Of a stretch of 64,000 nucleotides of DNA, positions 1 to 51,024 are shown piece after piece. Source of the DNA: Gammaproteobacteria bacterium (lineage in GTDB: Bacteria; Pseudomonadota; Gammaproteobacteria; CAJXQU01); assembly GCA_045110495.1 (NCBI GenBank), contig JBGCGE010000010.1, positions 2,392-66,391 of the forward strand. Direction: 5' to 3'. The notes beneath the pieces are model-generated. The model had not been told where the DNA came from. It worked only from the letters and a program-made list of their open reading frames with translations, and ran no database searches. Each line of letters starts with the position of its first letter. Within the stretch, counting starts at the first letter, position 1. The translations under genes and the position numbers were made by a program.

Positions 1-609
1 CAACATGTTGGTAATCCTGTTCGGGCATCGATTGTAGATCTAAAAAAACAAACAAAAAATAATGATCAAATCAGGATTCTGATCGTTGGTGGAAGTCTTG
101 GTGCAAGTTCGTTAAATACAATTGTTCCGCACGCTCTATCTCAAATCACAAACAAAAAAGAGTATGAATTAAACATCTGGCATCAAACAGGACAAGGCGG
201 TTTTGATCAAACACAAAAACAATATAAAGCGTTAAAAATCAAAGCGCGTGTAGAACCATTTTTAGATGATATTGATCAAGCTTATGGATGGGCGGATTTT
301 GTGATCTGTCGCTCAGGAGCATTGACCGTTTCAGAATTGGCCGCAGCTGGATTACCTTCAATTCTCGTTCCCTACCCACACGCGGTTGATGATCATCAAA
401 CAATGAACGCGGGCTACCTTGTTGATGCAGATGCTGCAGTGATTATTCCAGATTCTGATCTAACGAAAGAAAAACTAGCTTCGATTATTAATGATTGGAT
501 CGATAATCCAGGTAAGTTGATTGATATGTCTAATAACGCAAAAAAAGTAGCGATGACTGGTGCGACAGAACGAGTTTCAAATGCGTTACTGGAGGTGGCA
601 TATGGATAA
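1..609 (+). CDS. murG: MurG glycosyltransferase, 5' end outside window
   Basis: Frame 1 from base 1 reads QHVGNPVR, then GGSLGA, HQTG and RSGALTVSE..PYP..DDHQ..NA; first gene of the dcw run. Confidence 0.95.
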   Translation, partial: QHVGNPVRASIVDLKKQTKNNDQIRILIVGGSLGASSLNTIVPHALSQITNKKEYELNIWHQTGQGGFDQTQKQYKALKIKARVEPFLDDIDQAYGWADFVICRSGALTVSELAAAGLPSILVPYPHAVDDHQTMNAGYLVDADAAVIIPDSDLTKEKLASIINDWIDNPGKLIDMSNNAKKVAMTGATERVSNALLEVAYG

Positions 610-2053
610 AAATAATATCGATTCGATAGATCCAGGCATGGGTTCAAGCATGGGTATGGGGCGTGCGCATTATATCCATTTCGTTGGTATCGGCGGCGTC
701 GGTATGAGTGGTATTGCCGAAGTATTACATAACTTGGGGTACGAAGTTTCAGGCTCTGATCTTGCACAAAACCGTGTTACGAAACGACTTGCAGAAATAG
801 GGATTAAAATTTCTATCGGACATGATTCCGCTCATGTTGGAAAAAGTGATGCAGTCGTTGTATCAAGCGCAATTGATATTGAAAACCCTGAAATCTCATA
901 CGCCAAAGAGCATCGAATCCCCGTTATTCCACGCGCAGAAATGTTGGCTGAATTAATGCGTTTTCGGTATGGAATTGCGATTGCAGGTACACATGGAAAA
1001 ACTACCACGACAAGTTTAGTTGCCAGTTTACTTGCTGAAGGTGATCTAGATCCGACGTACGTAATCGGTGGCCGTTTGAATAGTTCTGGTACACACGCCC
1101 GTCTTGGTGATAGTCGTTACCTGGTTGCGGAAGCTGATGAAAGTGATGCGTCATTTCTACATTTGCAGCCGGTTATTGGTGTACTTACAAATATCGATCT
1201 TGATCATATGGAAACTTATGGTGGAGAAGTAGAAAAATTACGTGAAGCCTTTTTAGAATTTATGGCTAGATTACCTTTTTATGGCTTGGCTGTAGTTTGC
1301 TATGACGATCCAATGGCACGAGGTCTATTGTCTGATTTAACCAAACCAGTTCTCACCTTTGGGACAGATAAACAAGCAGATGTCAGAGCAACGAATGTTA
1401 AATTTTTTGAAGGTACTAGCAGCTTCGAGGTGAAACTTCCAAAGAATGAAAAAACATTTCCGATTAAATTAAATATGCCTGGACTTCACAATGTTTTGAA
1501 TTCATTAGCAGCGATTTCTGTCGCTTATGAACTAGGTGTTTCTGAAGATGCAATTTGCAGAGGTTTAGAAAACTTTCAAGGAATCGGACGACGATTTCAG
1601 ATCCATGGTTCGGTACAAATTGATCAAAGTAACGCATTGGTTGTCGATGATTACGGACATCACCCAAGTGAGATTGCTGCAACCATTTCAGCTGTCCGTG
1701 AAGGTTGGGCTAAGCGTCGCCTGGTAATGGTTTTTCAACCGCATCGATATACACGTACACGAGATCTGTTTGAAGATTTTGTTCAGATCCTTTCAAAGGT
1801 AGATGTGTTGATCTTGTTAGATATTTATTCTGCTGGAGAAAAATTGATCAAGGATGCCGACAGTAAAGCGCTTAGTCGGGCAATCAGATTGCGCGGACAA
1901 ATTGATCCAATCTTTGTCGATCATCCAGATGAAATTGTTTCTGTGATTCCTGGTTTTATTGAAGATGATGACATCGTATTGGTGATGGGTGCAGGAAGTA
2001 TAGGTCACGTAGCAGAACAGTTAATTGAAAGTTATGGGGGCAAAGCCGCGTGA
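602..2053 (+). CDS. murC: UDP-N-acetylmuramate--L-alanine ligase
   Basis: HFVGIGGVGMSG, GTHGKTTT, EADESD, DDYGHHP; start placed at ATG 602 behind GGAGG. Confidence 0.97.
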   Translation: MDKNNIDSIDPGMGSSMGMGRAHYIHFVGIGGVGMSGIAEVLHNLGYEVSGSDLAQNRVTKRLAEIGIKISIGHDSAHVGKSDAVVVSSAIDIENPEISYAKEHRIPVIPRAEMLAELMRFRYGIAIAGTHGKTTTTSLVASLLAEGDLDPTYVIGGRLNSSGTHARLGDSRYLVAEADESDASFLHLQPVIGVLTNIDLDHMETYGGEVEKLREAFLEFMARLPFYGLAVVCYDDPMARGLLSDLTKPVLTFGTDKQADVRATNVKFFEGTSSFEVKLPKNEKTFPIKLNMPGLHNVLNSLAAISVAYELGVSEDAICRGLENFQGIGRRFQIHGSVQIDQSNALVVDDYGHHPSEIAATISAVREGWAKRRLVMVFQPHRYTRTRDLFEDFVQILSKVDVLILLDIYSAGEKLIKDADSKALSRAIRLRGQIDPIFVDHPDEIVSVIPGFIEDDDIVLVMGAGSIGHVAEQLIESYGGKAA

Positions 2054-2973
2054 TGGCTGCGATGGATATGACATCCGATTTAAGAGGAACTTTAAAGCTT
2101 GATGAGCCAATGTCGAAGCACACGACATGGCGTGTGGGTGGAAGTGCTGATCGTTATTATGAACCGGCTGATATTGAAGATATGGCAAATTATTTACGCC
2201 AGCTTCCTGAGAAAGAACAGGTCACATTAGTTGGTTTGGGTAGCAATTTGTTGATCCGAGATAAAGGTATTCGCGGCAGTGTGATCTGTCCAACAGGATT
2301 GCTGAATGGATTTGAATTTTTGGATGATAACAAGTTGCGTGTGGAAGCGGGTGTGCCATGTGCAATTGTTGCAAAACGATGTGCAAAAGATGGATTTTCT
2401 GGACTCGAATTTTTAGCGGGAATTCCTGGAACGATTGGTGGCGCACTAGCGATGAATGCGGGTGCATTTGGTGGTGAAACCTGGCCGAACATTCAGAAAG
2501 TTGAAGTTTTAGATCGAGAAGGACAATTTCATGTTAGAAGTCCAGATCAATATTTAATTGGGTATCGATCTGTGATTGGCCCGATGGATGGGTTGCTCGA
2601 AGAATGGTTTGTTTCAGCACACTTTACTTTGAAGAGTTACGGCAATTCGAATGAGATAGAAGAAGGGACAAGTAAGATTAAAAAATTGTTAGCAAAAAGA
2701 TCAGAAACACAACCCACAGGTGTGGCAAGTTGCGGTTCTGTTTTTCGTAACCCACACGGTGATTTTGCAGCGAGATTAATCGAGGCATGTGGTTTAAAAG
2801 GCCATCAGATTGGAGGTGCGCAAGTTTCAGAAAAGCATGCGAATTTTATTATTAATTTAGGAAACTCAAGTGCTGCAGATATAGAAAACTTGATCTTGTT
2901 GGTCGCCGAAGAAGTAAAGAAAAAACAAGGCGTCACACTAGAATCTGAAGTGAGGATTGTTGGAGATGTCTAA
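2050..2973 (+). CDS. murB: UDP-N-acetylenolpyruvoylglucosamine reductase
   Basis: HTTWRVGG, GLGSNLL, GIPGTIGGALAMNAGA, GSVFRNP, HANFIIN. Confidence 0.97.
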   Translation: MMAAMDMTSDLRGTLKLDEPMSKHTTWRVGGSADRYYEPADIEDMANYLRQLPEKEQVTLVGLGSNLLIRDKGIRGSVICPTGLLNGFEFLDDNKLRVEAGVPCAIVAKRCAKDGFSGLEFLAGIPGTIGGALAMNAGAFGGETWPNIQKVEVLDREGQFHVRSPDQYLIGYRSVIGPMDGLLEEWFVSAHFTLKSYGNSNEIEEGTSKIKKLLAKRSETQPTGVASCGSVFRNPHGDFAARLIEACGLKGHQIGGAQVSEKHANFIINLGNSSAADIENLILLVAEEVKKKQGVTLESEVRIVGDV

Positions 2974-3895
2974 AGTGATAGAAACAATTCAATCTTTTGG
3001 GAAAGTCGCTGTGTTAATGGGCGGTACATCTGCTGAGCGTGATATTTCATTAGAGAGTGGACAAGCCATTCTGGCTGCCTTATTAAGAGCAGGTGTTGAT
3101 GCTGAAGGCATTGATTGGAAAGGCGGAATACCTTCGGAATTAGAACAAAAAAAAGTTGATCGAGTCTTTAATGCTTTGCATGGTCGAGGTGGTGAAGATG
3201 GAACAATCCAGGCGGTACTTGAAACACTAGAACTACCGTATACCGGGAGTGGTATTTTAGGTTCAGCGTTAGCAATGGATAAAGAAAGAACCAAACGAGT
3301 TTGGGCTGGATTAGGAATACCGACACCTGAATTTGTCGCGCCAATGGAACGACCAAATGCGAAAGAAGTAGTTAAAAAATTAGGACTGCCATTGATGGTT
3401 AAACCAGCAAGAGAAGGTTCGAGTTTTGGTGCTAATAAAGTTGAAAAAATTGATCAATTAATACCTGCCTGGGAGCAAGCAAAAAAGTTTGATGACAGTG
3501 TATTGATCGAGCAGTGGATCACCGGCGGAGAGTATACGGTTGGTATTTTACAAGGTGCAGCTTTACCTGCGATCAAATTAGAAACGCCACGCGATTTTTA
3601 TGATTTTCAAGCCAAGTATGAAGAAGAAACGACGCAATATATTTGTCCGTGTGGATTAGAAGCACACGATGAAATTGAGATTCAAAAGATTGCATTACAA
3701 GCTTTTGGCGCAGTGGCTTGTTCTGGATGGGGCCGTGTTGATTTGATGCTTAATGAAGCGGGAAATCCTTTCTTTATTGAGGTGAATACGGTTCCTGGAA
3801 TGACAAGCCATTCATTAGTACCGATGGGTGCTAAGCAGCAAGGAATCGAGTTTGATCAATTAGTGATCAAAATTTTAGAGACGAGTTTGTCATGA
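2966..3895 (+). CDS. ddl: D-alanine--D-alanine ligase
   Basis: GGTSAER, LHGRGGEDG, EGSS, YDFQAKY, EVNTVPG. Confidence 0.96.
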   Translation: MSKVIETIQSFGKVAVLMGGTSAERDISLESGQAILAALLRAGVDAEGIDWKGGIPSELEQKKVDRVFNALHGRGGEDGTIQAVLETLELPYTGSGILGSALAMDKERTKRVWAGLGIPTPEFVAPMERPNAKEVVKKLGLPLMVKPAREGSSFGANKVEKIDQLIPAWEQAKKFDDSVLIEQWITGGEYTVGILQGAALPAIKLETPRDFYDFQAKYEEETTQYICPCGLEAHDEIEIQKIALQAFGAVACSGWGRVDLMLNEAGNPFFIEVNTVPGMTSHSLVPMGAKQQGIEFDQLVIKILETSLS

Positions 3896-40914: not shown

Positions 40915-42696
40915 TTAACCTAGTGTGATGATGGTTTGACCTGCGGTCACGACATCACCTTCTTTAACATGAATTTGAGCAACTAAACCATTACTGGAAG
41001 AACGTATTTCAGTCTCCATCTTCATGGCTTCCATAATGATGATGACATCACCTTCTTGTACTTGCTGGTTAGACTCAACGCAGACTTTAAAGATGTTGCC
41101 ACTCAAAGGTGCAGTGATCGGTACGCTTTCTCCGGTGCTAACAGTAGCCACAGCGAGTGCTTCGGAAGCTACATCAGGATTCATCACAGGTGCTCCTGCA
41201 ACACCGACCTGGATGTCTGCACCACCATCAGTGACAACAGCATTGAATTGCCTGCCATCAACTTCAACGGTGTATGTCTCTGGGCCATCTGAGATAGTGT
41301 CATTTTTCGCCACAGGTACCGGTTCAAATGCCGATGGATCGTTGCGATGTTTCAAGAACTTTAGACCAATCTGTTGAAATAATGCATAGATCAACGCATC
41401 ATCTTCAGCATTTTCGGCAAGGTCAAAATCTTCATCTTTGGATAGTTGTCGGATTTCAGCAATCATTTTGTCTATTTCAGGATCAATAGTGTCTGCTGGA
41501 CGATGTGTAATTACTTCGCCACCATCTTCTATAACGCGAGCCTGCAAGTCTTTGTCGACCGGAGCTGGTGTTGCGCCATACTCACCTAAAAGTACACCAC
41601 GAGTCTCTTTTGTGATGTTTTTATAGCGTTCACCTAAGACAACATTTAGTACTGCCTGGGTGCCGACAATTTGTGAGGTAGGTGTAACCAATGGCAAATA
41701 GCCCAAGTCTGCACGTACACGAGGCACTTCTAAAAGAACCTCAGCAAATTTATCACCAAAACCTTGTTCCTTGAGCTGGTTTTCCATATTGGTGAGCATA
41801 CCGCCAGGTACTTGAGCATTAAGAATTCGAGCATCAACACCTTTAAGTTCGCCTTCAAACTTCCAATATTTTTTGCGCACTTCGCGGAAATGATCGGCAA
41901 TCGGCTCAAACGCCATCAAGTCTAAGCCCGTATCACGTTTGCTGCCTTGCATAATCGAGACAATGGTTTCTGTAGGCGTGTGACCGTAGGTCAAACTCAT
42001 TGTTGAAATAGACGTATCAATAATATCAATGCCCGCATCAATCACTTTCATAGTGGTTGCTGTACTGAGGCCCGTTGTTGCATGTGCATGCAAGTTCAGT
42101 GGTATGTCACAAACTTTTTTGATCCCTTTAACCAATTTTTCAGCTACGTAGGGTTGTAATAATCCGGCCATGTCTTTGATGCAAATTGAATCACAACCAA
42201 GATCTTCAAGTTGTTTGGCCATATTGATCCAGCCATTTAAAGAGTGCACGTCGCTGATGGTATATGACATCGTCCCTTGTGCATGCTTGCCGTTTTCTTT
42301 GACAGCTTTGATCGCGGTTTCAAGGTTACGCACATCATTCATGGCGTCAAAGATACGAAACACGTCCATACCATTGGTTGTGGCTCGCTCAACGAATTTA
42401 TACACAACATCGTCTGCATAATGTCGATAGCCAAGTAAATTCTGACCACGCAACAACATCATTTGTGGTGTTTTCTTAAAAACACTGCTTAGTTCACGTA
42501 GGCGAACCCAGGGGTCTTCACCGAGGAAACGAATACAGGAATCAAATGTTGCGCCACCCCATGTTTCTAAAGCCCAATAGCCGATATCATCAAGTTGTTC
42601 AGCAATAGGCAGCATATCGTCTAAACGTAGACGAGTTGCAAAAAGAGATTGGTGCGCATCGCGCAAGACGACATCGTTTAGGAATAGTTTGCTCAT
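40915..42696 (-). CDS. oadA: Oxaloacetate decarboxylase alpha subunit
   Basis: LRDAHQSL, WGGATFD, KDMAG, biotinylation motif EAMKM. Confidence 0.96.
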   Translation of the reverse strand: MSKLFLNDVVLRDAHQSLFATRLRLDDMLPIAEQLDDIGYWALETWGGATFDSCIRFLGEDPWVRLRELSSVFKKTPQMMLLRGQNLLGYRHYADDVVYKFVERATTNGMDVFRIFDAMNDVRNLETAIKAVKENGKHAQGTMSYTISDVHSLNGWINMAKQLEDLGCDSICIKDMAGLLQPYVAEKLVKGIKKVCDIPLNLHAHATTGLSTATTMKVIDAGIDIIDTSISTMSLTYGHTPTETIVSIMQGSKRDTGLDLMAFEPIADHFREVRKKYWKFEGELKGVDARILNAQVPGGMLTNMENQLKEQGFGDKFAEVLLEVPRVRADLGYLPLVTPTSQIVGTQAVLNVVLGERYKNITKETRGVLLGEYGATPAPVDKDLQARVIEDGGEVITHRPADTIDPEIDKMIAEIRQLSKDEDFDLAENAEDDALIYALFQQIGLKFLKHRNDPSAFEPVPVAKNDTISDGPETYTVEVDGRQFNAVVTDGGADIQVGVAGAPVMNPDVASEALAVATVSTGESVPITAPLSGNIFKVCVESNQQVQEGDVIIIMEAMKMETEIRSSSNGLVAQIHVKEGDVVTAGQTIITLG

Positions 42697-42774
42697 GATA
42701 ATTTAACGGTTTTATCTCGCTAGGTTTTTAACTACAACTAATGGGAGGCATGTCAGGAAATTTGCCATGATGTT

Positions 42775-43044
42775 TTAAAGGCCTTTAGCCTGTCGGTGTG
42801 CTTGCACCGCTGCAATAACAATGGACTTTTCTTGCTCAGAAATACTGGATTGACTAGCTGAGGCTTTTCTTGATGGTGCTGTAATACCGATATCTGGAAC
42901 AGCATGAACTGGATTCTTTTCAAATTTTAAACAAGCAGCCGACAAAAGACTGATACAAGTAATAAGCAATGACAACAGTAAAAATACTGTCCCCATACCC
43001 AAACCAAATAAAGTCGCAGCTTGTGTTAACTGATCTATTAGCAT
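42775..43044 (-). CDS. oadG: Oxaloacetate decarboxylase gamma subunit
   Basis: GMGTVF.LL TM helix, Pro/Ala linker, IAAVQAH; upstream of oadA. Confidence 0.88.
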   Translation of the reverse strand: MLIDQLTQAATLFGLGMGTVFLLLSLLITCISLLSAACLKFEKNPVHAVPDIGITAPSRKASASQSSISEQEKSIVIAAVQAHRQAKGL

Positions 43045-43308
43045 GTGGTTCTCGGTGATATTTGAAAAAAAATCGTATATCAGTAAATTATTATTATTTT
43101 AAAGACCAATGAAAATATGTTTATAGAAAACAGTCATTCTGACTCATTTTCATAATAGATAATACTTTTTTATGCTTCTTATTCTGTAACTTAACTTAAA
43201 TAATGAAAATAAGAGCATAACACGGATGATCTGCATCATGCACAACGACACTTGCAAGATCATTTGCTCTACTAGCAATTGAAGAGCTTTTATCTATTTA
43301 ATCTCTCT

Positions 43309-43569
43309 TCATTTGCATTCAACAATAAGCGACCTGTCCGCGGCAATAAGGAAGCCATGAGATTCATTTTTTTGATCAATAATGCTATAGCCTCGAACGC
43401 CACACATCTCACCAGCTTTTTGATAGCAATGAGCAATCGTAACAGCTGTACAATTAATGGCATAACCTGATTTTCCATTGGGAGAAGTTATAGGTGTTGT
43501 GATGGCACAGCCCGTCATAGTTACGGTCGTTAACAGACAAAAAAATACCAGTATTTTAGTTTTGATCAT
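43309..43569 (-). CDS. Small Cys-rich lipoprotein
   Basis: Lipobox MTGC; P.GK.GYAINC...CYQKAGEMC. Confidence 0.75.
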   Translation of the reverse strand: MIKTKILVFFCLLTTVTMTGCAITTPITSPNGKSGYAINCTAVTIAHCYQKAGEMCGVRGYSIIDQKNESHGFLIAADRSLIVECK

Positions 43570-43724
43570 AAGCCTTAACCTGCTTTTAGAAAATGTGTAT
43601 TTATTGTTTAGAAAATTTTAAAAGAGAAAATTTATGATTATTGTCTTTCAGCCATTAGTTATTTATATTTAAAATTCATAAATATTTGTAACTGCTGAAC
43701 CTCTTTTTTTATTACCAACACTAG

Positions 43725-44366
43725 TCAACCAATGGTGTTCTTTTTTTGCTTACCAACACACCATTCACCGAAAATAATGTTAATTATCCAGGCTGCTGTC
43801 ATTAGAATATCCCGCGTTACTCCACTTGGTTCTCCAACAGTTAACAACCATGGAATTACGATCAATACTTGCGTTCCAGCTCCCTGACCTAAAGCATAAG
43901 CACGAATCATCCATGCTCGATGTTGTGCAATTCTCATATCTAAAACTGTGGCTAATCCAAGTAAGATGTAAGCCGTCATTAAGGAGCCAACAAAAATACG
44001 AATAAAATAAAGATGGTCGCCCTGTAGATGCTCAGGAAAGTGATAATAGTGAGTCATCCATAAACCTGAAATTGCCGATACAATACCTGCAATAACCAGT
44101 AAACGACCCATTACCCGATGCCATTGAGGAAAGTTTTTTCTTATACTCGAGAGAAATTGAAAAGCACCCAAAAAGCAAAAAATGATAGAGCTAATAATGT
44201 GAAATATTGCGGGTATTGGTAAAAATTTTATTCTGGGATTTTCAGGCAAAAATTCTAAACTAGTGTTGAGATCTATCAACCGAAACACTCCTCCAATACA
44301 AGGCACAAAGCTTAATAAAAGCAACCCAATTAAGAGATACCATTCTGACTTTTTCAGGAATAACAT
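43725..44366 (-). CDS. DUF2306 membrane protein
   Basis: H.....LGAFQF, HR.MGR, HRAWMIRAYA. Confidence 0.85.
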   Translation of the reverse strand: MLFLKKSEWYLLIGLLLLSFVPCIGGVFRLIDLNTSLEFLPENPRIKFLPIPAIFHIISSIIFCFLGAFQFLSSIRKNFPQWHRVMGRLLVIAGIVSAISGLWMTHYYHFPEHLQGDHLYFIRIFVGSLMTAYILLGLATVLDMRIAQHRAWMIRAYALGQGAGTQVLIVIPWLLTVGEPSGVTRDILMTAAWIINIIFGEWCVGKQKKNTIG

Positions 44367-44472
44367 GCCGAATTCGATCCAATTATTTTTGATCTGATCA
44401 TTATCTTTCTACACCTGTTAGTTGCTTCTTGAAGGATTAAAAAAATATCAACGTAGATACTTTTTTACTTTC

Positions 44473-44516
44473 TTGACACCAGTATATTGAGACGCATAGG
44501 ATGTTCAATAACATCC
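44473..44516 (+). promoter_or_regulatory. sigma70 promoter overlapped by a palindromic operator upstream of the tetR gene
   Basis: TTGACA-N18-TAGGAT; GGATGTT-CAAT-AACATCC at 44499-44516. Confidence 0.65.
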
Positions 44517-44540
44517 AACTAAAACAGGAATATTAAGTGA

Positions 44541-45095
44541 ATGAGATATCCGCCAAATCAAAAAAGTGACTCTCGAAAAAAAATAATTAAGGCCGCAAGA
44601 TCAGTTTTTGCCAATGTAGGCTTTGATAAAGGAACCATCGATCAAATCATGTCAGAAGCAGGTATGACACGTGGTGGATTCAATAAACACTTTAGTAATA
44701 AAACAGAGCTACTAATTGAAGTTGTTCGTGAAGGACAAGTGGATTTACCAGAAGATATTTCGTGCCATGTTGGGGATATTCTTCGTCGTTATCTTGATGA
44801 TACACATATCGAAGACAAGGCCAACGCATGTCCACTTTTCACATTTCCAAATGACGTTGCACACCATGGAGACGATGTAAAAACAGCATATGAAGATGTG
44901 GCGAAATCTATTGTCGATGTCCTGACTCTAGCTCAGCCAGAAAAGAATAAAGAACTCGCAATGGCTTTGATGGCAATGTGCGTGGGTTGTATGGTCGTTC
45001 TGAATAGCTGTGCTGACGCCAATTTCAAACAGTCATTACGTAAAGCGACGTTAATGCAAATTTCGGAACTGACAGGAATTAAACTTTCCATGTGA
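44541..45095 (+). CDS. TetR/AcrR family regulator
   Basis: II.AA...F...GF...TI..IM.EAGMTRGGF..HF..K. Confidence 0.93.
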   Translation: MRYPPNQKSDSRKKIIKAARSVFANVGFDKGTIDQIMSEAGMTRGGFNKHFSNKTELLIEVVREGQVDLPEDISCHVGDILRRYLDDTHIEDKANACPLFTFPNDVAHHGDDVKTAYEDVAKSIVDVLTLAQPEKNKELAMALMAMCVGCMVVLNSCADANFKQSLRKATLMQISELTGIKLSM

Positions 45096-45103
45096 GCTTA
45101 ATT

Positions 45104-45122
45104 AAAGGGGTCTGACCCCTTT
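45104..45122. repeat. AAAGGGGTC-T-GACCCCTTT palindrome
   Basis: Perfect 9-bp arms around a 1-nt centre. Confidence 0.8.
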
Positions 45123-45157
45123 TAAGTTCTAGTTTTCATATTGCTTTCCATTTTGAA

Positions 45158-45256
45158 ACATAACGCTTACATAAGCGGAAAATTATAGTTGGCTATAATG
45201 TTTGAGGAACGAAAAACAGCCAACTGTAATTTTTCCGTTTGATGTTCTTGTTATGT
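45158..45256 (-). mobile_element. Integron attC site (99 bp)
   Basis: Minus strand ACATAAC-aagaacatcaaacgg...ccgcttatgtaagc-GTTATGT with a long internal inverted repeat; begins right after the stop codon of the upstream gene. Confidence 0.9.
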
Positions 45257-46198
45257 TCAATTTCTATTAGGCTTAATGTACCCTGAAATTAGGTAACAAT
45301 AAACTTCAATTAAATCATCAGCTAAATCATAAGAATCATCTGCCATAAGAGGAGCATGAGGAAAGATACCAAAGCGAGATTCAGGATGAAATGACATAAT
45401 TCGACTTTCGTAATACTCACTAAAATATTTCTCGGAAGCTTCGGAACTAAACACTTTACCTATGAATTCAGCAGCATCTTTTGAACTTGGGTTCTTAATA
45501 CCAAGCTGATGTAGCCTTTTTAACACCAGTCGAAAAGACGCTTCAAGAGATATAAATGTAGTATTGATTGATTCTTCTAGAAAATTAGAGAGAGCACCAA
45601 GCATTATGCTTCTAAACAATGTTGAAACCGCACGAACCATTAAATGATCTTTGGTATCGAAAGCTTCGTACAGGTGTTTTTGTAATTTAAGGTCATACCC
45701 ACTTTCACTTAAACCGTATTCAATGTCACTTTGAACCGTTGGCAGTTCAATACCTCTCATATTCTTATATTGATTTTCAACGGTAAGTTTATTTCCTCTA
45801 AAGTTACGTGCCATTGATGGCTCTTCTAGTACTTTTATTAGAGCAGAAGCAACACATTCTAAATATTCAATATTAATAATAGAATTTCCAATATTTACTC
45901 TGTGAGAAATTGAAAATGGAAATAAACGACAATAACCAAAGTCTCGGTCAATACAGAGTAATATTGATGCAAAAAGTTTAACCTCATTCAGAGTAGCCCA
46001 CTCGACCTCTGAGTAATAGTTTTCTATTTCTAATTTCACATCATCTATAGGAGCAATTGAAAAGCAGATCTGGTTACTTATATAAAGAGCAGAATCTTCA
46101 TTGATAATACTATGACTTGGGTACATCCCCATTGGTGACATCATTCTCACAGTATGGCTAGCATTTAAATCACGATACTCTAAAAATGAAATACTCAC
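45257..46198 (-). CDS. Cassette-borne HEPN-like protein (RxxxxH); ORF is open to 46216
   Basis: FISLEAS helix followed by YESRIMSFH; GTG 46198 lies behind AAGGAG. Confidence 0.75.
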   Translation of the reverse strand: MSISFLEYRDLNASHTVRMMSPMGMYPSHSIINEDSALYISNQICFSIAPIDDVKLEIENYYSEVEWATLNEVKLFASILLCIDRDFGYCRLFPFSISHRVNIGNSIINIEYLECVASALIKVLEEPSMARNFRGNKLTVENQYKNMRGIELPTVQSDIEYGLSESGYDLKLQKHLYEAFDTKDHLMVRAVSTLFRSIMLGALSNFLEESINTTFISLEASFRLVLKRLHQLGIKNPSSKDAAEFIGKVFSSEASEKYFSEYYESRIMSFHPESRFGIFPHAPLMADDSYDLADDLIEVYCYLISGYIKPNRN

Positions 46199-46212
46199 GG
46201 ACACTCCTTTGA

Positions 46213-46272
46213 ACATAACGCCTTTAGCACCGGGCGCGCGTTAGCGCGTCCGAGTGCCTAAACTTGTTAGGC
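46213..46272 (-). mobile_element. Integron attC site (60 bp)
   Basis: Minus strand GCCTAAC-aagtttaggcactcggacgcgc..gcgcgcccggtgctaaaggc-GTTATGT; the upstream gene's TAA lies inside GCCTAAC. Confidence 0.9.
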
Positions 46273-47430
46273 TGCACTTGGTTCGGATTTAAGGCGAGTG
46301 AGTATCTCTTGATTTTTTTGATACGTATTTTTCATTGACTCAACCAGCTTGGCTTTACCTAGCCCCTCGTCACTCATGTATCTGCTGGATATACTGCCTA
46401 GAACACCGAGCCACCACGTATTTGTGAGGGCCGCAATTCCTCCACCCACCAAATAGGCGAAGTATGTTTTTCCACTACGGTCTCCAGCAGCCTTTGCTTT
46501 TTCATATAGAGTCAGACTCTCTTCGCGATATGACGTAAATGCGATGAAAGCGAGCGTAAAAACAGGAGGCGCTAAACTAAAGTCTATATCGGCCGCTGAA
46601 GCGCCAGCCTCAACCTGCTCAGCTAGTTCAATGTTGGATATTTCACCGTTTTCAATATTTTCGCTAACGCCGGACATTACAAGATGCGAATAGACTTCAT
46701 CCGTAGTAACAACATCAATAGAAGGATATTTTGCCAGCGCCTCTTGAACGTAAGCCACAGAGTCGGTTGCCTTTGCTTGTAGAAGCTGAACAATTTCTTC
46801 ATTCGGGCCTACAACCTGAATATCCCAACCAGGCTGTGTAGACAACATGGCAAGATCGGCAGTGTAGCCATCTGGCAGGTTCTCATTCAGATAATCAACG
46901 TATTTTTGCTCAAATAGCTTTCCTTTCACGCCGCTGTGGAAGCCGGCCGTGGCCTCTTCGCCATCCAGAGAAATTAGCTTCTCGAGGAATGACGAGTCTT
47001 CTGCCATCTTTGGATATGCCGCCGCATAGGCTGCTTCGATTTCTGGCGCAACCGAAGTTGCTACAAGAAGCGTAGCTAGCGACTCACCCCCTACGAAGAC
47101 TGAGTCAGCAAACTTCTTGTTCCTAAGCAACTCACGATACAGGGCCCCTTGAGCTTCTACCCGATGTTCTAAATCCGCCAGCTTCTCCTTTGAGTAAACT
47201 GACTGGATGTAAAGACCTTTAGCATGCTCTTGAACTGAATCACTACCTTCGCGAATATACTCTGTCGCAATGTTTTTAGCTCGCTCGGTATAACCAGATG
47301 CCTGTTCAGTCCAATCGTCTTTATTTTCATCGATGTGATCTTTTACCTCTTTGGCAATATCAGCTGACTTTTCACCCAAACCAGCCGATATCGCTTTGGC
47401 TTTTTCCCATGCGGACCTAAATTTACTCAT
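46267..47430 (-). CDS. Cassette-borne protein with a PD-(D/E)xK-like core and C-terminal hydrophobic helices
   Basis: KGKLFE...PGWD...LQAK; hydrophobic segments PPVFTLAFIAF and FAYLVGGGIAALTNTWWLGVLG. Confidence 0.75.
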   Translation of the reverse strand: MSKFRSAWEKAKAISAGLGEKSADIAKEVKDHIDENKDDWTEQASGYTERAKNIATEYIREGSDSVQEHAKGLYIQSVYSKEKLADLEHRVEAQGALYRELLRNKKFADSVFVGGESLATLLVATSVAPEIEAAYAAAYPKMAEDSSFLEKLISLDGEEATAGFHSGVKGKLFEQKYVDYLNENLPDGYTADLAMLSTQPGWDIQVVGPNEEIVQLLQAKATDSVAYVQEALAKYPSIDVVTTDEVYSHLVMSGVSENIENGEISNIELAEQVEAGASAADIDFSLAPPVFTLAFIAFTSYREESLTLYEKAKAAGDRSGKTYFAYLVGGGIAALTNTWWLGVLGSISSRYMSDEGLGKAKLVESMKNTYQKNQEILTRLKSEPSAA

Positions 47431-47444
47431 AACATCTCCGTGTG

Positions 47445-47506
47445 GCCTAACAGTCTGTTATACGGGAATGCTTCCCGCATAACATTATTATGAGGAACGT
47501 TTCCCT
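47445..47506 (-). mobile_element. attI-like site with no adjacent intI
   Basis: Minus strand GTATAAC-AGACT-GTTAGGC simple site, preceded by a degenerate direct repeat ending in GTTATGC. Confidence 0.65.
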
Positions 47507-47674
47507 GAAGTTAGAATTTGTGAAAGTCACGATCCTGTAACCATCTGATTTATATTACCTTTTAAATTTTCCATTATTCTTTTTCCTAAAACAAGGGAAC
47601 GATTCGTGGATAATGTAGCTTACTTTATCTGGTGCGTCAGTAGATTTTTCAACCAAACGTGACTTTGTTATATA

Positions 47675-50254
47675 TCATAACCACCCCTTCAACTCATACA
47701 ACTTCTCCAACGCTTCTTTCGGACTCAACTCATCTGGATTGAGATCATTGATCTTATCTGCAAGTTCAAGCATAGCTGTAGAAGGCAGTAGTTCAAGTTG
47801 TTCGTTTTGATCTACAGGATGAATATTAGTTTCACGACTCTCTAATTGTTTTAATCGAATACGTGCTTGTTTGATTACGTCTTTTGGAACGCCAGCGAGT
47901 TGGGCGACTTGTAATCCATAGCTGCGATTCGCGGGGCCATCTTTTACCGTGTGCATGAAAACTAATTTATCTTTGTGTTCGATCGCATCAAGTCGCACAT
48001 TGATCGCGGTAGGATGCTTTTCTGGAATTGCAGTCATTTCAAAATAATGCGTGGCGAACAATGTCCATGCACCGATATTTTCGAGTAAATGGATCGCGCT
48101 TGCCCACGCCAATGACAGCCCATCGAAGGTGCTGGTGCCGCGTCCGATTTCGTCCATTAAAACTAACGAGTTTTGTGTTGCATTATTAAGAATATTCGCT
48201 GTTTCGATCATTTCTACCATGAAGGTTGAACGGCCAGAAGCTAAATCATCGCTGGCGCCAATGCGGGTAAAAATACGATCAATATTTCCTATGCTGGCAG
48301 ATTTTGCCGGAACAAAACTACCGCAGTGTGCGAGCAAAACGATCAGCGCGATTTGTCGCATGTAGGTGGATTTTCCACCCATGTTGGGTCCGGTGATGAT
48401 CAACATTTTCCGATCTTCATTCATGATCAAATCATTTGGAATAAAACTTTCTTCTTGAATTTTTTCAACCACAGGATGACGACCGGCTTCAATATTGATC
48501 TGGTTCGTCTGACTTAGATCTGGTTGAGCGAAATCTAATGTCACCGCACGTTCGGCAAAACTTCCGAGTACATCGAGTTCTGCGATTGCCGCTCCGGTTG
48601 ATTGAAGATCTGGCGTGTGTTCGGTTAATTGATCGAGCAGATCGGCATAAAGTGCTTTTTCCAGCTTCAGAGCTTTTTCACCCGCGCTGAGAACCTTGTC
48701 TTCATATTCTTTTAATTCAGGCGTGATGAAACGTTCGGTGGCTTTGAGTGTTTGTCGACGATGATAATGAGTTGGAACGTCATTGCTTTGCAAACGGCTG
48801 ATCTCAATGTAATAGCCGTGAACACGATTGTAGCCAACTTTCAGCGTTTGTATGCCGGTGCTTTCGCGTTCGCGGATCTCAATTTGATCAAGATAGTCGC
48901 TGGCATTTTTGCTCAGTTTTCGTAGTTCATCCAACTCGGCGTGATAGCCTTCAGCGATCATTCCGCCATCACGAATTAAAGCTGGTGGCATTTCGATAAT
49001 CGCATTGGTGAGTAGAGAAAGCATGTCGGGAAATTGATTAATCTGATCAGAAAGTTGTTGCAGTCTTGGGCTATCCAGATCGGCCAGTTGTTCTTTAATA
49101 TCAGGCAACGCGCCTATCGAAGAACGAAGTTGAGCGAGATCTCGTGGCCGAGCAGATTTAAGTGCAATACGTGTGGTGATGCGTTCCATATCGCCAATGG
49201 CGCGCAGTGTTTCTTGTAGATCAGAATAATGTTGATTTTCGATCAAGGTTGCTACAGCGTGATGGCGAAATTTGATTGCTGCATGATCGCGCAAAGGCGC
49301 TTGCAACCAGCGGCATAACATACGACTGCCCATGCCGGTTACCGCAGAGTCAATCAAATGTGCAAGACTATGGCGGCGTTCGCCCGACAAGCTGTTGAGA
49401 ATTTCCAGGTTACGACGGCTAGCAGCATCAATCGTGATCGTGTCGCTCAAAGTTTCCAGTTTTAATTCGGTCAGGTGCGGCAGCGAAGTACGTTGTGTTT
49501 CACGCGTGTATTGCAAAAGACATCCGGCGGCTGAGATGGTTGAGGGTAATTGATCACAACCGTAACCTTTTAAATCCGTTACTCCGAAATGTTCTTTAAG
49601 CTGACGCGTGCTGCTATCGAGATCAAAATACCACGGCGACATAGTTGAAATCGATTTATGATTTTTTAACGCCGCTAGCAATGGCGAATCTTCACTGATC
49701 AAAATTTCAGCGGGTTGTAATCTTTCCAGTTCTGCGATCAATTCGTCGTGTTTGTTGTCTTTATTTGTGTTGCGATCAGAGTGCTGAGAAATCTCCATCA
49801 CATGAAAGCGCCCACCGCTGAGATCTAACCAGGCCAGGCCAATTTTTTGATCAAGCTCATGGATGGCTAATAGCAGATTATCCTGTCGTTCTTTTAATAA
49901 GGCTTCGTCGGTGACGGTTCCCGGCGTAAGAATGCGGGTGATTTTACGTTCGACCGGACCTTTGCTCGTTGCAGGATCTCCAACTTGATCACAAATGACA
50001 ATTGACTCACCCATGTCGACTAATTTAGCCAGATAATTTTCTGACGCATGCATCGGCATGCCCGCCATTGGAATAGGCTCACCAGCCGAGTTTCCACGTT
50101 TGGTTAATGCCAGCCCTAACAGTTCATTTGCGCGTCGTGCATCTTCAAAAAAGAATTCATAAAAATCCCCCATTTGAAAAAACAACAACTTGTCAGGATA
50201 CTCAGCTTTAAAGCCAAGATACTGCTGCATTGCTGGGGTATGTTCAGTCGCCAT
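47675..50254 (-). CDS. mutS: DNA mismatch repair protein MutS
   Basis: [36 protein letters not shown]. Confidence 0.99.
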
Positions 50255-50272
50255 AAAGTTCTAAAAATTCGA

Positions 50273-50677
50273 TTATTTAAACTGTGAAAGGCCATCAAGC
50301 ACTAGCGAAATAGGACTGACCATGCCGATGATGTCACGGTGTTCTATAACGGGAGCACGCATCAGATTATATTGTGCAAAGAGCCTCGAACAATGACGAA
50401 TATCCATATCTGGATGAACTGAGATTACTGGCTTGTGCATAATTTCATAAACATTAACTCGGCCAGCTGGACGATCTTTACTGAGTACATGACGGGCAAT
50501 TTCGCCAGCCAGAATCAATCCATACTCATCGTCAGGATGACGTTTGTTGACGACTAAAACAGAGGTTTTGTTTTCCTTCATCATTGATACAGCTTCTGCC
50601 ACAGTGGCTATACCATCAATGGTAATGAAGGCGGTTTTCATTACATCGCGGACGCGAACTATCGGGTTTTCGTTCAT
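50273..50677 (-). CDS. Stand-alone CBS-pair protein
   Basis: VRDVM, two CBS repeats, IM.KPVISV. Confidence 0.88.
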   Translation of the reverse strand: MNENPIVRVRDVMKTAFITIDGIATVAEAVSMMKENKTSVLVVNKRHPDDEYGLILAGEIARHVLSKDRPAGRVNVYEIMHKPVISVHPDMDIRHCSRLFAQYNLMRAPVIEHRDIIGMVSPISLVLDGLSQFK

Positions 50678-51024
50678 AACTCCTCCTTAATAACTTTGGT
50701 GAGATCGCGGACTTGATGGCGTACACCAATCGCATCCTCGACATCAATTTGAAAGGCGATACCGGTGCCTGGTTTTTCATCAAACTCGGCGATATCAGAA
50801 ATTTTTTCCAGAATTTGTCTGGCCATATGTTCTTCAACTAAAAGCAGCACAACATCACGTTGTGTTTCTAGTGTCAGGCCGAAAAAAGTTTTCGATTGTT
50901 TGATGCCTTCACCTCTGGCATTACTGATCACCGTTGCGCCAGTCGCGCCGGCTTCTCGTGAGGTGTCTAGCACCAGATCCGTTTTGTCGTCTTCGACAAA
51001 CACGATGATTAATTTAAAGCGCAT
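50674..51024 (-). CDS. Non-canonical PII-family protein
   Basis: GATGATV...RGEG, PGTGIAF; lacks the Tyr51 T-loop motif. Confidence 0.85.
   Translation of the reverse strand: MRFKLIIVFVEDDKTDLVLDTSREAGATGATVISNARGEGIKQSKTFFGLTLETQRDVVLLLVEEHMARQILEKISDIAEFDEKPGTGIAFQIDVEDAIGVRHQVRDLTKVIKEEL

Follow-up and report, generated by a model that had tools for sequence, protein, structure and literature searches.

The target gene of this analysis is an open reading frame (ORF) at 46267..47430 on the minus strand (coordinates including the stop codon) of a 64,000-nucleotide stretch of DNA from a Gammaproteobacteria bacterium (GenBank assembly GCA_045110495.1, contig JBGCGE010000010.1, positions 2,392 to 66,391), hereafter referred to as the window. 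The ORF starts with an ATG, has GGAG 8 nucleotides (nt) upstream, and encodes a protein of 387 amino acids (aa). In the gene's own direction, the upstream neighbor is mutS, which ends at 47675, and the downstream neighbor is a second ORF of 319 aa. An element resembling an integron attI site lies between mutS and the target gene, and each of the two ORFs is followed by a putative attC site. The coordinates of these features, and of the parts of the protein, are presented in Table 1. The product is predicted to be a PD-(D/E)xK nuclease, which may be held at the inner membrane and may act against invading nucleic acid.

The target protein has no significant match in Pfam, NCBIfam or PHROGs. The preliminary description, made from the sequence of the window alone, had been unable to assign it to a named family, and for these three collections this still stands. 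It does not stand for PADLOC, where two models of the candidate PDC-M72B match the protein with expectation values (E) of 5.4e-17 and 8.2e-16, from residue 146 or 147 to residue 274. A word-indexed search, in which 8000 candidates were scored, yielded 288 proteins with E<=1e-3, many of them full length at 44-67% identity and all annotated as "hypothetical", from Gammaproteobacteria, Sulfurovum, Opitutae and metagenomes. An exhaustive phmmer search over 1.84 billion representatives yielded 620 clusters at E<=1e-3, 334 at E<=1e-10 and 132 at E<=1e-30. The lengths of these relatives span 134 to 685 aa, and the match almost always covers residues ~103-382, and the ~100 residues ahead of it are variable. 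Judging from these searches, a large unnamed family stands behind the target protein, with a core that PADLOC already lists as candidate PDC-M72B. YeeR_C (PF27347; score 0.87, rank 22) came up in the ESM Atlas as a sub-threshold lead. Within the class the distribution is sparse: the target gene was found in none of six same-genus genomes and in none of 34 others of the class, and a profile search matched 9 of 401 class genomes, a count that takes in the source genome (G000) and one unpublished genome (G300). The full-length form (E<=1e-145) was present only in G000, G124 and G262.

KGKLFE, PGWD and LQAK had been pointed out in the preliminary description as spaced like an E..PD..(D/E/Q)xK site. 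The three motifs are present in the protein (K169-G-K-L-F-E174, P200-G-W-D203 and L217-Q-A-K220), and their conservation is far above chance both in 40 close homologs and in an alignment of 147 diverse homologs reaching down to 29% identity, which is the homolog set referred to from here on. In the close homologs, K169, G170, K171, F173, E174, W202, D203, Q218, K220, D239, T242, T243 and E245 are invariant. In the diverse set, E174 is kept in 147/147 sequences, D203 in 144/147, Q218 in 136/147 and K220 in 145/147; the exceptions at Q218 are seven S, two N, one L and one R, and those at K220 are two R. Other near-invariant residues are K171 (147), G170 (145), K169 (144), N182 (144) and E245 (133, with a further 13 D). 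Given this conservation across 147 homologs, the E...PD...QxK motif is real and under strong selection.

AlphaFold2, applied to residues 105-387 with the 147 sequences, produced a model with a predicted local distance difference test score (pLDDT) of 93.5 and a predicted template modeling score (pTM) of 0.80. The core of this model presents the canonical alpha-beta-beta-beta-alpha-beta PD-(D/E)xK arrangement, made of helix 158-184, strands 190-193, 204-207 and 213-220, helix 225-234, strand 239-242 and helix 244-252. E174 is placed in the first helix, D203 just before strand 204-207, and Q218 and K220 at the end of strand 213-220. The core is preceded by a conserved helical subdomain, whose helices are 2-20, 25-34, 36-41 and 44-50 in model numbering (adding 104 gives protein numbering). 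A full-length model built on the 40 close homologs was discarded (pLDDT of 53.9, with coiled-coil noise in the fold search), and a homodimer prediction for residues 105-387 scored 0.00, which carries no weight either way.

When the model was compared with the PDB using Foldseek, the best match was EcoT38I with E of 0.02, and no match reached 0.001. The top rows are almost all PD-(D/E)xK-fold nucleases, including BstEII, Ecl18kI, HindIII, a Cas4-family protein, NucS, Bax1, Can2, PaqCI and NucC. After re-scoring, such nucleases occupied 50 of the 50 rows of the list, the best being PaqCI (Z of 7.6, root-mean-square deviation (rmsd) of 3.0, 105 residues aligned), with influenza PA-N at Z of about 7 (118-134 aligned) and Bax1 and BsaWI at 6.8. 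An all-against-representatives structure search returned nucleases mixed with helical-bundle matches (top bundle Z of 7.8); the nucleases were PaqCI (Z of 7.2, rmsd of 3.2, 110 aligned), influenza PA-N (6.9, 133 aligned), BsaWI (6.8) and an XisH-like protein (6.3). Restriction, Mrr and VRR-NUC proteins were matched in the BFVD viral structure library (best E of 3.4e-3), and PADLOC gave a weak match to the NucC effector (E of 0.013, residues 164-195). PaqCI, influenza PA-N, BsaWI, Bax1 and NucC share with the target protein the core fold and the placement of E, D and (Q)xK, but are only 6-14% identical to it, and none has a C-terminal hydrophobic hairpin.

Each of these structural scores, taken alone, lies in a range that the tools call undecisive. 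Considering them together with the topology, the motif conservation and the match to PADLOC, we take the PD-(D/E)xK fold as established with high confidence, and catalysis as likely. The restriction-endonuclease fold anticipated in the preliminary description is in this way borne out, with an alpha-beta-beta-beta core in the model, conserved E, D and K, and fold neighbors of the expected kind at modest scores.

The N-terminal region was modeled as helices 2-35, 37-78 and 81-102, with pLDDT mostly below 60. The amphipathic or coiled N-terminus of ~100 aa proposed earlier is thus recovered as long helices, at low confidence only. Its matches are weak and apolipoprotein/YtxH-like (E of 0.15-0.65; E of 0.013), and a profile search of the PDB gave apolipoprotein-like matches to the N-terminus and none in the core region. 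Ten long relatives were scanned against Pfam, nine of which have no domain. In the tenth, P0138 (533 aa), a Swt1-like HEPN domain (HEPN_Swt1, E of 7.5e-8) replaces the amphipathic N-terminus; by its sequence this protein is a two-nuclease fusion, typical of conflict systems. The N-terminal extensions of these long relatives consist mostly of more amphipathic sequence, with no window of transmembrane (TM) grade, the threshold for which was set at a Kyte-Doolittle hydropathy (KD) of 1.6 over a 19-residue window.

The tail that follows the core consists of a hydrophobic helix and a helical hairpin, modeled with pLDDT of 88-97. Residues 290-301 of the post-core helix read PPVFTLAFIAFTSY. The tip of the hairpin, residues 321-348 (YFAYLVGGGIAALTNTWWLGVLGSISS), is hydrophobic and Gly-rich, and the hairpin ends are charged. 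The two hydrophobic, Gly-rich C-terminal segments of the preliminary description therefore exist, as Gly/Ala/Ser-rich segments 283-301 and 320-348, but they are below the TM threshold in the target protein and reach TM grade in relatives only: KD is at least 1.6 in 37 of the 147 homologs for segment 283-301 and in 31 for segment 320-348, with medians of 1.43 and 1.37. The protein has no signal peptide.

The profile search of the 401 class genomes also yielded both short relatives (234-294 aa) and longer forms (532-545 aa). All seven of these relatives that were scanned match PDC-M72B, with E of 3e-14 to 5e-29 (8e-19 to 5e-29 for the five short ones). In three of the short relatives (L039, L045 and L041), the layout of a DYFPPL helix, a basic loop and a 28-30-residue Gly-rich hydrophobic stretch is kept, with KD of 2.0-2.1, and in the other two (L044 and L047) the KD maxima are 1.5-1.6. 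Two forms of 532-545 aa carry extra N-terminal segments with KD of 1.7-2.2. Three of the five short relatives lie behind DUF697 (PF05128) proteins in overlapping two-gene operons (E of 8e-7, 1.6e-6 and 4e-3), and these partners are themselves strongly hydrophobic. The pairing is recurrent, being found for L039, L041 and L045 (285-294 aa; genomes G236, G375 and G384). As far as titles listed in the literature allow one to judge, nothing mechanistic has been reported on DUF697. The idea that the C-terminal helices of the target protein are a fused DUF697 was dropped, as hhalign against the partners shows no similarity (probability of 0.8%).

Given that related nuclease domains accompany membrane-type modules both in cis and in trans, we read the C-terminal tail as a putative anchor. 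Membrane association appears fairly probable on these sequence grounds, and the anchor would probably be a re-entrant hairpin leaving the nuclease in the cytoplasm.

With respect to the DNA around the gene, attC boxes were sought with the consensus R'' RYYYAAC and R' GTTRRRY. In the putative attC of the target gene, the R'' box GCCTAAC (46266-46272) contains the gene's stop codon, and the R' box GTTATGT (46213-46219) holds the ATG of the next ORF. The fold of the site contains bulged bases and has an energy of -15.6 to -17.7 kcal/mol, with z of only -1.5 on the gene (minus) strand and -2.6 on the plus strand, and its call rests on pattern, fold and a homologous attC. That homologous attC belongs to locus L013, from a gammaproteobacterial metagenome-assembled genome (MAG), whose homolog (57% identity) is the closest that the genome collection contains. 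A ~50-nt palindromic repeat stands on either side of the L013 gene, its two copies ending GTTAGGG and GTTAGGC, and the gene is followed by its own attC, which starts GCCTAACAAG at the stop codon and is related to that of the target gene. The second attC of the window presents z of -5.9 (gene strand) and -6.6 (plus), with 0/200 shuffles folding as well, and is ~73% identical to two sites in a cassette array of the same-genus genome G005. Given the attC here and the homologous cassette in L013, the target gene appears to travel with its own attC, and its sequence surroundings make it an integron-type cassette.

The R' box of the attI-like element is 15 nt ahead of the target ATG, the junction reading ...CAGACTG/TTAGGC (the slash marking the break), and a hairpin with a 13-bp stem lies within the element at 47456-47484. 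Positions 47452-47674 are 77-81% identical to a segment of G005 flanked on one side by the first ORF in a long array of small, co-oriented ones and on the other by a divergent gene, which scores 388 bits on the integron-integrase model TIGR02249 (cut-off of 265). In one direction the homology extends to the integrase start codon, where the window has the mutS stop, and in the other to the G/TT junction; homology with two other copies in the source genome also stops exactly at this junction. No intI above the cut-off was found in the source genome, where the sole matches are XerD (contig C9) and XerC (contig C30), whereas all five same-genus genomes searched have one or two integron integrases above it. 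The source assembly has 78 contigs and is 98% complete, such that an unassembled intI copy elsewhere is conceivable; at this locus its place is filled by mutS. A Logan contig of run X1, which may be the assembly's own sample, spans 47508-47900 and bridges the junction between the element and mutS with zero differences. The slot next to attI claimed in the preliminary description is hence right by homology to G005, but the platform appears to be an orphan, with no integrase in the genome.

Taken together, the target gene is the sole gene of its cassette, which comes first behind an orphan attI-like site in what is left of an integron, two cassettes without the integrase. The encoded protein is a divergent, catalytically intact-looking PD-(D/E)xK nuclease, the C-terminal hairpin of which would tether the active site to the inner membrane on its cytoplasmic side. 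There it would cut invading phage or other foreign nucleic acid, and being tethered would hold it at a distance from the chromosome. The swappable N-terminal amphipathic region, in place of which relatives have HEPN or longer coils, may be a regulator or sensor. The gene, its family, the motif conservation, the fold prediction and the anatomy of the cassette are shown here; the nuclease activity, the tethering, the part in defence and the manner of triggering are inferred. We assign a probability of roughly 45% to this reading, that is, to a single-gene membrane-tethered nuclease acting on invading nucleic acid, while a defence role as such appears somewhat better than an even bet.

Three described systems are relevant to this reading. 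PDC-M72 is a PADLOC phage-defence candidate that, in the consulted portion of Payne et al. (bioRxiv 10.1101/2024.01.29.577857), is found by "guilt by embedding". The target protein shares a homologous core with PDC-M72B (E of 5.4e-17 over profile positions 25-143 of 193), but the PDC-M72B models, of 168-193 positions, span the core alone, and the target protein adds an amphipathic N-terminus of ~100 aa. Moreover, PDC-M72 is a two-gene candidate, in contrast with the stand-alone cassette gene. No match to PDC-M72A was found in the downstream ORF (no PADLOC model at E<=1) or in the three DUF697 partners. Since no A component is adjacent and the upstream gene is mutS, we consider the target protein a relative of the PDC-M72 B domain and not the PDC-M72 system.

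Epona is a cassette of a Vibrio cholerae sedentary chromosomal integron (SCI), with an Mrr_cat nuclease and a holin domain of two TM segments, reported as anti-phage in the part consulted of Darracq et al. (bioRxiv 10.1101/2024.07.02.601686), where SCI cassettes are said to often encode compact anti-phage systems, some causing lysis or growth arrest. Like Epona, the target gene is a single-gene integron cassette combining a restriction-fold nuclease domain with hydrophobic helices; unlike it, the target protein matches neither Mrr_cat nor holin in Pfam at E<=1. By analogy, and comparing descriptions only, Epona is the closest described thing in architecture and habitat. SNIPE (PD-lambda-1), as described in the excerpted text of Saxton et al. 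(Nature 2026, PMC13190303), is a constitutively membrane-anchored nuclease with a single N-terminal TM segment, DUF4041 and a GIY-YIG nuclease, which acts directly on entering DNA and whose location separates self from incoming DNA; when SNIPE lacks its TM segment, the chromosome is cut. The likeness to SNIPE is in concept only, i.e., a nuclease held at the membrane: the target protein has the opposite domain order and a PD-(D/E)xK fold, with no Pfam match to DUF4041 or GIY-YIG.

Several observations weigh against a membrane-tethered defence nuclease. No window of the target protein reaches the KD threshold, the maxima being 1.49 (110-128), 1.46 (282-300) and 0.98 (near 324), and the hydrophobic helices could equally be the core of a buried helical bundle, given that a pTM of 0.80 implies one compact unit. 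All structural scores have Z below 8, a range that can reflect common arrangement only, and Q stands in the third position of the motif instead of D or E. Only 3 of the 15 relatives' loci scanned (30 neighboring proteins) contain known defence genes, and most neighborhoods are ordinary (histidine kinase, LeuRS, sulfatase-modifying enzyme, glycosyltransferase). Among 72,556 plasmid and 50,697 phage records, tblastn found no homolog. A crude attC scan downstream of 36 metagenome relatives gave 0/36, a scan that is insensitive, given that L057 and L058 show GTTAGGC/GTTGGGA boxes just upstream of the gene by eye; the cassette form may be a minority within the family. A simple promoter scan found no sigma-70-like site on the target gene's strand. 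With no IntI in the genome and no promoter detected, cassette-promoter expression cannot be assumed, nor can the best-expressed first position on which the preliminary description counted. Finally, no experiment on the target family or on PDC-M72 was found in the literature, "PDC-M72" being absent from the papers searched.

The alternative that survives best is that of a soluble protein, in which the C-terminal helices and helix 106-124 form a buried helical core or an oligomer interface regulating a cytoplasmic nuclease. It would account for the KD maxima below 1.6, for a model that is one compact unit, and for the alignment of the helical parts with soluble helical bundles at Z of 6-7.8. However, compactness decides nothing, since AlphaFold packs true TM helices compactly too. 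In addition, the homologous segments reach KD of 2.0-2.1 in relatives, and members of the domain family are repeatedly paired with DUF697 proteins or fused to multi-TM parts. We regard a soluble protein as rather unlikely.

The genomic context of the relatives bears on whether the nuclease acts in defence at all. In the neighborhood set of 21 loci (20 from the genome collection and the window), no partner gene is conserved, which agrees with the single-gene unit of the preliminary description. The clusters common to three loci are an HsdR-like protein (L016, L024 and L026) and genes of three related Burkholderiales loci. The loci with known defence genes are L016, with an HsdR-like protein and GmrSD; L026, with a type I restriction enzyme (1124 bits); and L018 (an Opitutia MAG, 257-3348), with a Drt4 reverse transcriptase (E of 1.6e-151) and a PDC-S20/PifA-like gene directly upstream. 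Among the relatives, L018 is the clearest defence island. A HipA-like kinase is present in L027, a tyrosine recombinase in L019, two dynamin-family GTPases in L021 and a helicase in L030, and the remaining scanned loci have housekeeping genes or no match. The defence-island association that the preliminary description proposed to look for is accordingly mixed, and the context is suggestive of defence as a set of neighborhoods, not as a measured enrichment.

A nuclease with a role other than defence could process transforming or conjugative DNA at the membrane, serve repair or recombination, or stabilize the array as an addiction module or toxin. Nucleases that work in DNA uptake at the membrane are known. 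Housekeeping genes surround most relatives, the loci share no conserved partner or immunity gene, and the target gene happens to adjoin mutS. This adjacency is unconserved in 4/4 same-genus genomes checked, which downstream of mutS share nothing with the window at the DNA or protein level. With its few, scattered occurrences and its contexts in cassettes and defence islands, the gene looks more like an accessory conflict gene than like a part of core DNA metabolism, and a toxin standing alone, with no antitoxin, would be difficult to retain. We therefore find a role of this kind unlikely.

Another possibility is an abortive-infection effector, in which the nuclease degrades DNA, or the C-terminal Gly-rich helices oligomerize into a killing pore, or both. 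The preliminary description had suggested pore-forming helices and abortive infection, and nothing in our results speaks positively for either. The C-terminal helices are rich in small residues and Gly-zipper-like, a HEPN-fused homolog exists, and the SCI systems with lysis or growth arrest and the Epona pairing of a nuclease with a holin-like two-TM domain, as far as described in the consulted part of bioRxiv 10.1101/2024.07.02.601686, would be precedents. On the other hand, the hydrophobic arms of the hairpin are short (321-336 and 339-347), there is no sign of oligomeric pores, no holin or pore family was matched in Pfam, NCBIfam, PADLOC or PHROGs, and the conservation in the helices (P288, R318, W340 and G342) is as compatible with a structural or anchoring role as with a pore. 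Such an effector seems improbable, although direct action on entering DNA and killing of the infected cell are not decidable from sequence.

That the fold is catalytically dead and serves as a nucleic-acid binding or sensing module, as the Q in place of the acidic residue at (D/E)xK and the weak structural scores might be taken to mean, is very improbable given that E174, D203 and K220 are essentially invariant in the 147 homologs, that a conserved acid, E245 (D in 13), lies nearby, and that QxK variants are mentioned for active superfamily members (NERD) in the consulted portion of bioRxiv 10.1101/2024.01.29.577857.

With a membrane-tethered nuclease acting on invading nucleic acid retained as the preferred reading, the target gene is a plausible single-gene defence candidate from a large and well-conserved family. 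If this is true, a large family of "hypothetical proteins" would become a compact one-gene immune nuclease, and a second, unrelated nuclease would be kept at the membrane, a principle recently shown for SNIPE. It would also give a first functional handle on the PDC-M72B domain and its DUF697 link, and adds to the case for chromosomal integron cassettes as stores of streamlined defence genes. Should the reading fail, a well-defined and highly conserved nuclease family without an assigned role would still be left. A broader and doubtful extension is that the ~620-cluster family, together with its short PDC-M72B-like cousins, might be a widespread class of membrane-tethered PD-(D/E)xK nucleases whose location distinguishes self from non-self, in that they cut DNA during its passage through the inner membrane. 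In this speculative class, the membrane module would be provided in cis (as a hairpin at the C-terminus or a TM bundle at the N-terminus) or in trans (by DUF697 partners), the trigger would be tuned by interchangeable sensors at the N-terminus, and the class might conceivably be the PD-(D/E)xK counterpart of SNIPE, circulated by integrons as a one-gene cassette.

Table 1. Features of the target locus and of the target protein, in window positions unless a contig of the source genome is given.
Feature	Position	Strand	Basis or remark
mutS, outside the cassette element	47675..50254	-	stop codon abuts the attI-like element, where intI is expected
attI-like element	47445..47674	-	ends in R' box GTTAGGC (47445-47451); homology to G005
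Target ORF, sole gene of its cassette	46267..47430	-	full-length homologs of 44-67% identity
Residues 1-104, variable Lys/Glu/Ala-rich amphipathic helical region	47119..47430	-	model helices
Residues 105-157, conserved helical subdomain (GGESL..., AYxAAYP)	46960..47118	-	model helices and conservation
Residues 158-255, predicted PD-(D/E)xK nuclease core	46666..46959	-	secondary structure, conservation, PDC-M72B, fold matches
Core codons	E174 46909-46911; D203 46822-46824; Q218 46777-46779; K220 46771-46773	-	
Residues 283-382, hydrophobic helix 287-301, then helical hairpin (308-336, 339-382)	46285..46584	-	putative membrane anchor
attC of the target cassette, 60 nt	46213..46272	-	R''/R' boxes and imperfect palindrome
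Second cassette ORF, 319 aa, unnamed family	45257..46216	-	downstream of the target gene
attC of the second cassette, 99 nt, imperfect palindrome	45158..45256	-	R'' ACATAAC, R' GTTATGT
Extra attI-like copies (L049, L048)	C24:991-1148, C40:5892-6084		same junction start (GTTAACT, GTTAAGT)

The attI-like element is present in three copies in the source genome, the extra two being 85-86% identical to that of the window. Each copy lies behind a different co-oriented gene (mutS, a 455-aa ORF and a 330-aa ORF) and before different small ORFs. The three copies resemble several decapitated integron platforms, or else an unrecognized movement of attI-plus-cassette units. The integrase of G005 (L033, contig C3, 14954-15926) is read in two frames, with positions 1-40 set apart from the rest and a TAG present, and G004 has two integrase copies, each broken by a TAA; given these interrupted genes, integrase decay seems common in the genus. 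In run X1, contigs over the attI-like element (47450-47543) add up to a depth of 25.6, versus about 4.4 on either side, i.e., roughly six-fold, and three contigs differ in sequence to the left of 47448. This depth and these divergent contigs suggest that the sample contains other cassettes at similar sites, in other copies or strains.

The second cassette ORF has no match in Pfam, NCBIfam, PADLOC or PHROGs, and its nearest ESM Atlas cluster has 1298 members, none of them named. No Rfam family was matched across 42000-51000. At the far end of the cassette remnant, beyond the second ORF, a TetR-family gene in convergent orientation and a gene for a DUF2306 membrane protein are found (43725-45095), and the terminator of the TetR gene (45102-45125) faces the last attC.

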